Source of the DNA: Amphiscolops sp. MND2022
Taxonomy: Eukaryota
Direction of reading: 5' to 3'
DNA: 64,000 bases
Assembly (NCBI GenBank): GCA_964187785.1
Contig: OZ076409.1
Span: forward strand, 19,532,001-19,596,000
Shown here: piece by piece, positions 43,601 to 46,600 of the stretch
Layout of the letters: each line of letters opens with the position of its first letter
Position numbering within the stretch: position 1 is the stretch's first letter
Position numbers and translations under genes: made by a program
The notes under the pieces: model-generated
What the model was told of the DNA's origin: nothing
Seen by the model: the letters and a program-made list of their open reading frames with translations, nothing else
Databases searched by the model: none

Positions 43601-46600
43601 AACACTCGCTGTTTTTAATCCTGTAAGTGTTACAGTAGGGGGCTTTTATATCGACCCTGAGGGGCAGTTGATTTTAATGTCGGTATAAAAACCGTCGTTA
43701 TAAAGATATTCGTTACAAGCATTTGCTGTATGACAGGGAACTTGGAAAATTGTCGTTATAAAAGCTCGTCGTTATAAAGCACTCCGTTATAAACACCCCC
43801 TACTGTATTTGACAAGAGCATAGCCGAAGTAACGAATTGGTTTTCATCTTATAGATTTTTTTTAATTTTACAGGATGAAGCCGTGGTTATTCGATTAGTG
43901 CTTCAGAAGATTGCCCTTCGATTTTTTTCTCTTTATATTTGTTTCTAAAAAGCTTACACATGACAGTTCCGAGGTAAATTTGAGGAAAAACGAAAAATAA
44001 ATTGTAACAAATGGATGTTAACATTGCTAATGTAATCAAAACGCTAGCAGGGTTGTCAATGCGTTATGGATAGTATTACAGACTTTGATGCAAAAAGTGG
44101 ACCTATTGGTTTTGAGAATGTTGAATGTTTCATTTGACTCGTGCGCGTATCTACTTGTATGTACGTGTATTCATCTTGTTCGTATATTCGGTACCTTTTC
44201 GTGCAAACATGACAACACGCTGCTGCCCAAGAGGTCCGTTAAACCGAGATCCGACTGTACTCAATAGTGCAATATTATTGGGCTCAATAACAGTGGGTAG
44301 GGTGTCCACTCTTTGGGACCCCTCACCTCTCCGGGTAATTAGGAGTCATTAGAACGAAATTAGTAACGAACGAACATTTGAATAGGACCAAAAGTAGTTG
44401 CATTGGTTGGGTTGAGTGGTTGAACAGGGTGAGCATACATGTACGTACACAATGTACTGTATTGCAGGCGTAGAGAAAGATTTACGTGGCGTGGTCAATG
44501 TGATCGATGACTATGCAGTGTACTTTGACGGCGACAACGGGGAGATCCTCAGAAGAGAACAAGTGCCCCAAGACATGAGAGCCCAGATGAGAGATTTGAA
44601 GAGTGAGCTAGTGGAGAACCTCACTAACGTGGATGAAGAGATGGCCGAAATTTATCTGGATGACAGACAACCTACTGACCATCAGGGATGTCCACAAAAA
44701 TCATAAAATCATGCCAAAACAATACAATACACAATTGGTCCAATAAGTTTTGTCTGAACAATTGTTTTTGCAATAGGCTTTTTCCCTCAATCTTTCACTT
44801 TTGAACGCAATATATTGTGACCCAAGCTCATCAGAAAGGTGGTTTTGTGTCACGATACCGAATTATTGTTTGAAAAGTATGAAAAGTGTTGTGGGTTGTG
44901 TTTTCCGGAAATGATCAGAGTTATGCAACCGAATTTCATATATTGACCAGCCAGGGATCGTAACAAAAGAATAATCATTCTCGACAATAACTGTTTCTAC
45001 TTGGTATTTTTTTTATTTTGCGATCCCAATATATATTTTTACCCCTACAAGACCAATGTTTTCAAAATGTTTAATTCGAATGAATAATTGACATCCCTGA
45101 TTGCGATCAGATCAAAGCTGCAATCAGAAGGTAACACTTAGAAAGAGAAACACTCTTTTAACAAGAATAAGACTTGATATTTTTGTCATTGCATTTTGTA
45201 ATAAATACTATCGTCAGATTAATTAGTTCGTCAGACTTTTGACGAAAGGGCGCCGACTTGGAAAAGCAGAACTGCTTATAAGGCGCCCACCCCGGGGAAT
45301 TGGGAAATAAACTTTTTTCTTCGTCAGACTTTGGAATTCATTTCAATTTTGCTTCTTGGCTAGGCCTCTCAGAGCAGCTGTTATTTTCAGAGGTTTGGTA
45401 TCTGTCGTTTCATTGATGACGTATTGTGAAAGACTTTTTGTTTGAACCGTTTGACTGTAACACCTGACTGACAGGCTCCAATGGAAGACCTTCAAAAGTA
45501 GAATCGAAATTTAAAGAAGTGATATTTGTTAACGGAATCATGGACGGGTGCCTCTGAGTGCATGTTTTTCCTTGGAATGAGCTGCTCAGTGAATGAACGA
45601 ATGAAGGGTTTAAATGTGTAAGTGTAGGTTGACATTTTTAGGTGCACCCTGAAACGAACCTTCACGCCCATCTTGTGTGGCTCTGCGTTGAAGAATGTGG
45701 GGGTGCAACCGGTGCTTGATGCTGTGTGTGAGTACCTGCCTAACCCCTCTGAAGTGGACAACTTCGCGTTCGACAACTCAGGTGCGCCTGCCTCGCATAC
45801 TCTGCTACATTTCATTGTCTTTTATTACAGTAGATCCCGGATATAAGAAGCCCGTTTGTAGTCAATGCGTATCTTCTCCCCGATTACCTATTTAATTCCT
45901 TCTGAAAATTAGCATTCGAAAAAAAATTCGACTATAAGAAACACGACTAGTCGTTCCGCTGGCGTTGATTATATCCGGGTTCCACTATACTACACAAGTA
46001 ACATGTGCACGGAGTTGGTGCTTTACATTCAGCAGTGAAAATGAAAAAAAAGTAACGGAAAATGGATAATTCAAGAGTGTAGCAATGACAAAAAATGGCT
46101 GAGAGGGATGGTGGACTTTGTCAAAGACAATCCGAGTAGGCAATTCAAAGACAGACAAAACTTGAAACCAAAGCTTCATGATTTGAATGCAGGCTCTGTA
46201 CATATGATGGTAGTTGTGTTTGTTATCGTTCTTGTTGCGCTGCTGGAACTTCCACCAAAAACCTGTTGTGAATTTCCTCCTTTTTTGTCAATTGTCAGAG
46301 GCGGAGCAGCAGGAGGGGTCACAGTGGGTGCGAGTGAGGATGGAGCCTGAAAGGAGCAAACAGCACCCAATGGTGTCGCTGGCCTTCAAACTGGAGACTA
46401 GTCGCTTCGGTCAACTCACCTACTTCAGGTACTACTTACACGTATCATCTAACTATCTACATTTCTAACTAATGCAACCTCTTCCTCTACCGCAACCCAT
46501 TTGTCACGAAAGACTCAAGAGATTTGTAACTAAATCCGCTTATTTCTAACACCATTCATTTTCAACTATGCCGGGAGGGAGGGGAACGTTGCCACCGTTC

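Follow-up and report, generated by a model that had tools for sequence, protein, structure and literature searches.

How can a gene remain intact when a DNA transposon lies inside its coding sequence, and where would the transcript be cut if the transposon were removed as an intron? This question is raised by the GFM1 gene, the counterpart of human mitochondrial EF-G1, in a window of 64,000 nucleotides from Amphiscolops sp. MND2022 (assembly GCA_964187785.1, contig OZ076409.1, forward-strand positions 19,532,001 to 19,596,000; window coordinates are used below, and all GFM1 features are on the plus strand). The coding sequence is interrupted at 44683-45099 by a 417-bp non-autonomous DNA element, a miniature inverted-repeat transposable element (MITE) and an old member of the CAGGGATGT family. 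A reading of the window from its sequence only had proposed that a hAT MITE was turned here into a GG-AG intron without leaving a scar. Together with related elements in other genes, the sequences indicate that such insertions are probably GG-AG introns of the ordinary spliceosome, cut at the element's own end; that they are removed at the RNA level seems nearly certain.

The element in GFM1 is bounded by perfect 10-bp inverted copies, CAGGGATGTC at 44683-44692 and GACATCCCTG at 45090-45099, and the inverted repeat at 44683/45099 is extended to 12 nt by a repeat finder through the flanking AT. It is followed by 8 nt (45100-45107) and then by CAG (45108-45110). The upstream coding exon (44468-44685) aligns without gaps with residues 208-275 of human EF-G1, hence the exon ends at residue 278; its last codon, CAG (44683-44685), consists of the first three bases of the element. 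The next large exon (45642-45781) begins at human residue 286, so that seven residues are needed between the two. A 20-nt micro-exon at 45111-45130, which encodes IKAAIR plus two bases, yields exactly IKAAIRR opposite LKLAIRR in human. The length of the product agrees with that of human EF-G1 only when 44686-45110 is removed as a GG-AG intron, and no other removal gives the seven-residue spacing. The predicted intron is 425 nt long and of phase 0, and lies between human-equivalent residues 278 and 279. Every sequence feature described in the sequence-only reading was found as stated, including the necessary join of PTDHQ to IKAAIRR.

In the predicted intron, the donor CAG|GGATGT would be provided by the 5' arm (44683-44692), seven of its nine bases matching the complement of the 5' end of the genome's U1. 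The acceptor CAG (45108-45110), the first AG past the element, would be the original Gln codon of the exon, by the empty-site logic taken from the kinase paralogs described below. A candidate branch site, TTGAC at 45088-45092, whose A (45091) lies 19 nt before the end of the intron, overlaps the 3' arm (45090-45099), which is predicted to pair with the 5' arm with a probability of 1.0. The 8-mers flanking the element, an exonic copy of the putative target-site duplication at 44675-44682 and a decayed intronic copy at 45100-45107, are identical at 4/8 positions, among them positions 2 (T) and 7 (A), which agree with the target consensus of the family. This low identity had been noted as a reservation, but it is no weakness since the 32 other cases described below range from 8/8 to 1/8. 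A nine-exon GFM1 chain with the CAG|GG junction contains no stop in 476 codons; its seven remaining introns are all GT-AG, and GG is the donor of one of the eight GFM1 introns checked. The later exons reach a stop codon near 57,970, and this copy, complete to its stop codon, is apparently the only complete GFM1 in the genome. If the element were retained, the frame would end six codons past the Gln. A scan of the intron against Rfam gave weak matches only, all under the gathering scores.

The arrangement seen in GFM1 recurs in other genes. An AG at +10/+11 past a perfect 3' arm was found for 21 matches, representing 20 elements, of which 17 (including GFM1) join open frames via CAG|GG...YAG, one is located shortly ahead of a stop codon and two appear to lie outside exons. 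Searches tolerating decay of the 3' arm added further exonic cases, and chance-looking matches from these relaxed searches were dropped for failing the arm or the frame rule. Of 40 oriented GGATGT candidates, 32 satisfy the frame rule (34 codons upstream, 26 downstream and 85 in total); GFM1 with its micro-exon brings the number to 33, a lower bound that covers elements of 168-498 nt with a perfect 5' arm. The common register is a donor CAG|GGATGT from the element and an acceptor YAG 11 nt past the element. The acceptors of the 32 cases are CAG in 27 and TAG in 5, the AG at +11 is the first AG in 29, and the phases of the predicted introns are almost evenly distributed (10/11/11). When frames of at least 50 codons are required on both sides and the pass rule is not used, 21 of 23 GGATGT elements rejoin in frame (P 1e-8 against one third), and 25 of 31 do so when sister arms are included. 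Sister families with C or T at +3 also have apparent GG-AG introns (L247, L244 and L240), one of them beside a TMTC domain. As a separate observation, the first exon base past the acceptor is G in only one of 32 cases (about 23% expected; uncorrected P 0.002); a G at this position would let the acceptor pair with CCTG of the 3' arm.

An acceptor-blind sample was drawn from C1 and the first 95 Mb of C2 and comprised every independent element with perfect arms listed there, 30 in all after collapsing copies with repeated flanks. Of their 60 ends, nine have YAG at +9 to +11, where about 1.8 would be expected (P 7e-5). The common register makes seven of the elements exonic; two more are exonic in another register, by which two codons are added. 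In this second register, represented by L226 (C2:11.40 Mb) and L227 (C2:11.83 Mb), the acceptor lies inside the duplicated 8-mer.

The position of the join is fixed to the residue by homology in seven genes, encoding GFM1, a protein kinase, a bHLH protein, a ryanodine receptor, an ABC2 transporter, DNA ligase 4 and a GalNAc transferase. The profile runs continuously across the join at positions 126|127|128 of the protein kinase, 21|22 of the bHLH domain, 457|458 of DNA ligase 4 and 118|119|120 of the GalNAc transferase. For the ryanodine receptor (185|186|187) and the ABC2 transporter (147|148|149), continuity was obtained after an ungapped extension of 4 to 6 residues. P0004, a protein in the public record that was called as an open frame, ends a short way into an element.

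The absence of the intron in homologs was examined for two of the 33 genes, the kinase and GFM1. All nine kinase paralogs that were aligned in full length are single open frames, uninterrupted at the insertion site (five of the 14 other matches, shorter or distant, were left unaligned). Two tandem kinase paralogs within the same 200 kb show the empty site at the DNA level, one carrying the 8-mer of the target and the other keeping the original CAG. For GFM1, a metagenome scan gave 80 loci, of which 26 were inspected; 14 of these are prokaryote-like or have no intron beside the match, and the other 12, from eukaryotes that are not close relatives of the source animal, bear introns. In all 12 an acceptor stands before codon 281 (280|281), 6 nt downstream of the element intron, and in all seven with a traceable upstream exon a GT follows codon 280. 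Since this conserved intron lies 6 nt away in 12/12 loci, and the position of the element intron itself is absent from them, the position of the element is new. The window GFM1 has no intron at the conserved position (45116|45117 within the micro-exon); its element lies two codons earlier, and Ile-Lys is kept as exon. The old GFM1 intron was most likely lost before the element intron arose, and both the GFM1 and the kinase insertions are gains. The canonical intron that follows the micro-exon (45131-45641) is also missing from the inspected eukaryotic homologs, in which the frames run through; this suggests a wide turnover of introns in the lineage.

The structure of the elements points to a family of hAT-like MITEs with hobo-type targets. 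The genome contains 266 occurrences of the paired ends at a spacing of 150-480 nt, and a reversed control pattern gives 4; many of the 266 are one insertion repeated inside larger repeats, and the independent insertions are fewer. About 30 mutually similar copies are present among those retrieved, many intact copies have 8/8 target-site duplications, and one family, A, has both exonic and non-exonic members. Among 76 strand-readings of 38 young target sites, 51 have T at position 2, as in the NTNNNNAN pattern, which is tabulated for hobo (PMC3276498; statements taken from this and other cited papers, except PMC5714493, refer to parts of their text). The arms pair at 9 to 15 of the first 15 bases across the 32 cases. 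The GFM1 element, with short inverted repeats and without coding capacity, has a full-length non-exonic relative on C3 (L119; alignment score 149, against -47 +/- 18 with a maximum of 13 for shuffles) and a partial relative on C12 (L006; 69% over its 3' part). With these dispersed copies the element proves to be a member of a MITE family, as had been supposed, and the 8-bp duplications, the arms and the targets agree with the class named; the label 'hAT' is based on structure, since no transposase was found. An autonomous hAT transposase with the same ends was not found beside L006 (10 kb, no second end), the sole lead followed and without a genome-wide search.

Two intact CAGGG MITEs cited in the same reading are real, both with 8/8 duplications. 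One, of 359 bp (38305-38663, plus strand), has 14 of 16 arm bases paired. The other, of 835 bp (40501-41335, plus strand) and with a 21-bp arm, lies wholly inside a canonical intron; its 8-bp duplication copies the GT donor of GFM1 exon 40289-40496 and the exon is unchanged (40493-41343). Its interior includes a palindromic stretch near 41050-41160.

From these features, the following course of events may be proposed. A hAT-like element would insert, with an 8-bp duplication, just before an exonic CAG. The transcript would then be cut after the CAG of the element, which stays in the mRNA in place of the exonic CAG, and the duplicated 8-mer and the original CAG of the gene would leave with the intron; with three bases in and three out, the frame and the protein length would be kept. 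Insertions without YAG in register would have been purged and those in register would have survived. The claim that the gain is scarless stands as far as this exchange of CAG is concerned, which keeps frame and length; it does not extend to the 5 of 32 acceptors that are TAG, nor to the two insertions in the register adding two codons.

The GG donor could be tolerated because it matches U1 except at G+2 and T+4. Donor positions +4 to +6 pair with a box of U6, and TGT at these positions would suit the ACAGA box; the U6 box of this genome, ACAGAGA, is canonical. The match to the U1 target is 7/9 for CAG|GGATGT and 6/9 for the sister arms. Of the perfect GGATGT elements, 17 of 20 satisfy the frame rule; where T, G or C stands at +3, only 7 of 25 do so (P 2e-4). 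This effect of A at +3 fits the better U1 match of GGATGT. The same preference for A at +3 is seen in the copepod Eurytemora affinis at GA and GG donors supported by RNA (PMC5714493). The intron does not begin with GT or GC as U2-type introns do, but it has an extended U1/U6 donor match, a YAG acceptor and a branch-like A about 20 nt upstream, and may work as a U2-like intron with a non-canonical donor. The candidate branch A is invariant in 32/32 cases, partly through selection by the search patterns, and the 3' arm likely provides the branch site. No convert to GT with a matching arm was present among 65 matches that allowed any base at +2 and +3. Three loci (L245, L260 and L263) have the same geometry, a GA or GC donor and open frames on both sides, and are possible converts from GG. 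Besides the ordinary genes, there are U1-like genes with variant 5' ends (L169, L176, L183, L175, L181 and L182); in three of them, different U1 bodies carry an altered start preceded by one common upstream sequence, and three others have A at U1 position 6.

The least certain step is a contribution of pairing between the two arms, which may aid removal: the 3' arm decays about three times slower than the adjoining duplication. In the 32 cases the mean identity of the duplications is 0.61, while about 0.91 of the 3' arm is retained, with no mismatch in 16 cases, one in 15 and two in 1 (two-mismatch arms and TAG acceptors are incompletely sampled). Per 16 perfect arms, 15 with one mismatch were seen, and neutral decay predicts 40 to 61 (P 4e-6 under a lenient model); for CCCTG of the 3' arm alone the numbers are 8 against 20 (P 0.003). 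The intronic copy of the duplication shows no shift to pyrimidines (138 vs 141), and its decay therefore looks neutral. Pairing of the arms is predicted, at a probability of at least 0.5, in 29/32 cases. A branch site may account for part of the 3' arm; the retention of CCCTG, however, is more readily understood as pairing with the donor. A tentative and rather doubtful extension is that the 3' arm, which is perfectly complementary to the donor, replaces U1 or recruits the machinery of SOS splicing, so that GG is cut exactly and the structure is kept by selection in essential genes.

The fit of the CCCTG constraint to donor pairing keeps SOS splicing as a rival. In that process, which depends on AKAP17A, CAAP1 and RTCB, the inverted repeats would pair and RTCB would join the ends; in a hybrid form, the spliceosome would read the AG and the hairpin would set the 5' cut, and the YAG register would represent the insertions that give an exact product. 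The predicted pairing, the retention of the 3' arm with its deficit of single mismatches, and the neutral-looking decay of the intronic duplication are all in its favor, and Tc1 insertions no more than 11 nt from an exon boundary have been found to undergo hybrid splicing (10.1101/2025.02.14.638102). The SOS cuts reported there are imprecise, however, with indels and rare GU-AG, and involve 54-nt repeats, whereas the present arms measure 9 to 15 nt, and imprecision fits poorly with joins located within conserved motifs of genes that appear to be essential. Pure SOS splicing predicts neither the excess of YAG nor the effect of A at +3, the predicted pairing is weak in three of the passing cases, and part of the 3' arm may be kept as a branch site. 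On balance we consider this rival unlikely. A canonical intron, with its donor at the GT four bases in (GGAT|GT) and another AG restoring the frame, is still less probable, even though GT is found at intron +5 in every copy and family A reads GTAAAA. Of the other 32 cases, 22 have no frame-compatible AG within 30 nt and the nearest AG shifts the frame; the GFM1 product would be one residue short at a place where all homologs keep the residue, and the seven homology-exact joins fit the GG register only. It is marginally less credible again that the GFM1 element merely replaced the donor of an older intron, or that the old intron slid by 6 nt, with no gain. The conserved intron is indeed just 6 nt away, and the duplications agree at 4/8 with two of the matches at consensus positions; yet the Ile-Lys codons between the two positions are true exon, as in QIKAAIRR of intronless homologs, and the intron consists of the element plus 11 nt only, a geometry common to 32 other genes, one with an empty site. 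We give hardly any credence to the idea that the insertions stay in the transcripts of dead genes or are excised from DNA. The two other GFM1 matches are partial, one with a weakened CAA|GG end, and dead copies do carry the element, but the window GFM1 extends in full to its stop codon, the flanking frames remain open even as the duplications decay, and excision from DNA would not require YAG.

Removal as GG-AG introns by the ordinary spliceosome remains the reading we favor, and several points weigh against it. The search patterns for the 33 cases presuppose the donor and YAG, and the pass rule was set after the data had been seen; when any register is allowed, five apparently non-exonic ends of the 60 also pass a 35/35 rule, and look like chance. 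Exact homology support covers only seven of the 33; for most of the 33, no Pfam match extends across the join, and the junction in ICMT is displaced by two profile positions. In GFM1, the GT at 44690 and the AG at 45117 form a canonical in-frame alternative, which gives six residues instead of seven and skips a nearer AG, and 10 of the other 32 cases have an AG that is frame-compatible with that GT. No change compensating for G+2 was found in the 23 U1 matches (42 of 17,560 candidates scored); the copepod, with its canonical U1, likewise has none (PMC5714493). In human minigenes GG donors are weak, with 13% full-length product for one ATM variant (PMC12805630). The predicted stem would bury both the donor and the candidate branch site, and should hinder the spliceosome. 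The autonomous transposase, looked for beside L006 only and not found, is a further point on this side.

The partial GFM1 copies, about 97% identical, are located at C12:37.48 Mb (L002, L228 and L229) and C10:52.94-52.96 Mb (L103, L104 and L231). In both, a later insertion lies inside the element (534 bp, and about 19 kb in the C10 copy), and the donor of the C10 copy reads CAA|GG. Triploidy, considered because of the three GFM1 matches, was rejected: within the stretches retrieved, the C10 and C12 matches span only about 43.0-48.4 kb of the window gene, and the other introns give single matches. Just upstream of GFM1, the window contains three long overlapping frames at 30245-34668, which we take to resemble the family-B DNA polymerase of a Polinton-like element. 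An intronless frame on the minus strand at 36461-37048 seems to resemble ribosomal protein S2/uS5 and is possibly a retrocopy. Tandem duplications with repeated open frames lie inside and after GFM1, in units of about 1.9 kb at 50083-53663 and about 1.75 kb at 58703-63117.

Introners are known as non-autonomous transposons with terminal inverted repeats that become introns, one splice site being carried by the element and the other co-opted (PMC9860276, PMC12130899, 10.1101/2020.10.14.339549). Among the matches listed, hAT-class introner families with 8-bp duplications occur in plants, fungi and the tunicate Styela clava (PMC12130899). The 33 cases agree with the definition in that related elements stand at independent coding positions of unrelated genes; as in introners, there are several registers per family and the acceptor comes from the target or the nearby exon. 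Introner donors are named as GT, GC, GA and AT, with others pooled as 'NC', whereas the donor here is GG and most copies are ordinary MITEs outside exons. The string CAGGGATGT did not turn up in the supplement files of PMC12130899 covered by the search, 12 of 14, and, as old introns have lost similarity in their interior, a similarity-based introner survey would miss them.

GG donors are also known, and are rare: PMC5714493 cites 32 among 222,263 human introns (PMC4176328 also has them as rare in human), and a FlyBase table has 0 (PMC4528330). GA-AG introns are covered in PMC7072748. In E. affinis, constitutive GG donors are supported by RNA, and they agree with the present ones in the AG preceding the cut, the A at +3, the canonical U1 and the lineage-specific positions; there, however, 10-12% of introns have a GA or GG donor, predominantly GA, and a transposon origin was not suggested, whereas here the source element is visible (PMC5714493). 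SOS or hybrid splicing resembles the present case in that a DNA transposon with inverted repeats, predicted to pair here, lies in a coding exon and gene function is kept; SOS is imprecise with rare GU-AG, in contrast to the one fixed register, YAG, U1/U6-like donor and much shorter arms found here, and its authors speculate that it eases the conversion of transposons into introns (10.1101/2025.02.14.638102). MITE-derived introns of Fritillaria borealis and nonconventional introns of euglenids, in the latter of which CAG/CTG pairing joins the ends, also show traces of inverted repeats and duplications at the intron ends, but those introns are numerous throughout the genome and have AG-AC, AG-AT or variable boundaries, while G+1 and the final AG are kept here and only +2 is odd (PMC11282704). 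In mainly open-access texts, with supplements in part, no literature tying GG donors to a transposon end was found, and the available parts of two acoel genome papers (PMC9911081, PMC6451197) do not mention such introns. The origin proposed in the sequence-only reading is very probably right. Introners and GG donors are each known; new is their combination in an animal, where the inverted repeat of an introner would provide a GG donor by an exchange of three bases and the insertions have become fixed in genes that appear to be essential.

For gene annotation, gene finders and introner surveys limited to GT, GC or GA donors will truncate such genes. The finding raises the questions of how a spliceosome with a normal U1 accepts G+2, and whether splicing triggered by inverted repeats is a bridge from transposon to intron; the route through RNA structure, if true, could also apply to other animals with GA and GG donors. 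The elements suggest where GG donors may come from: these are in general very rare, and in the copepod, where they are common, they have had no explanation. Within one animal genome it would provide a series of intron gain, from free MITEs through young exonic copies with duplications of 7-8/8 to old ones that keep little but their ends.

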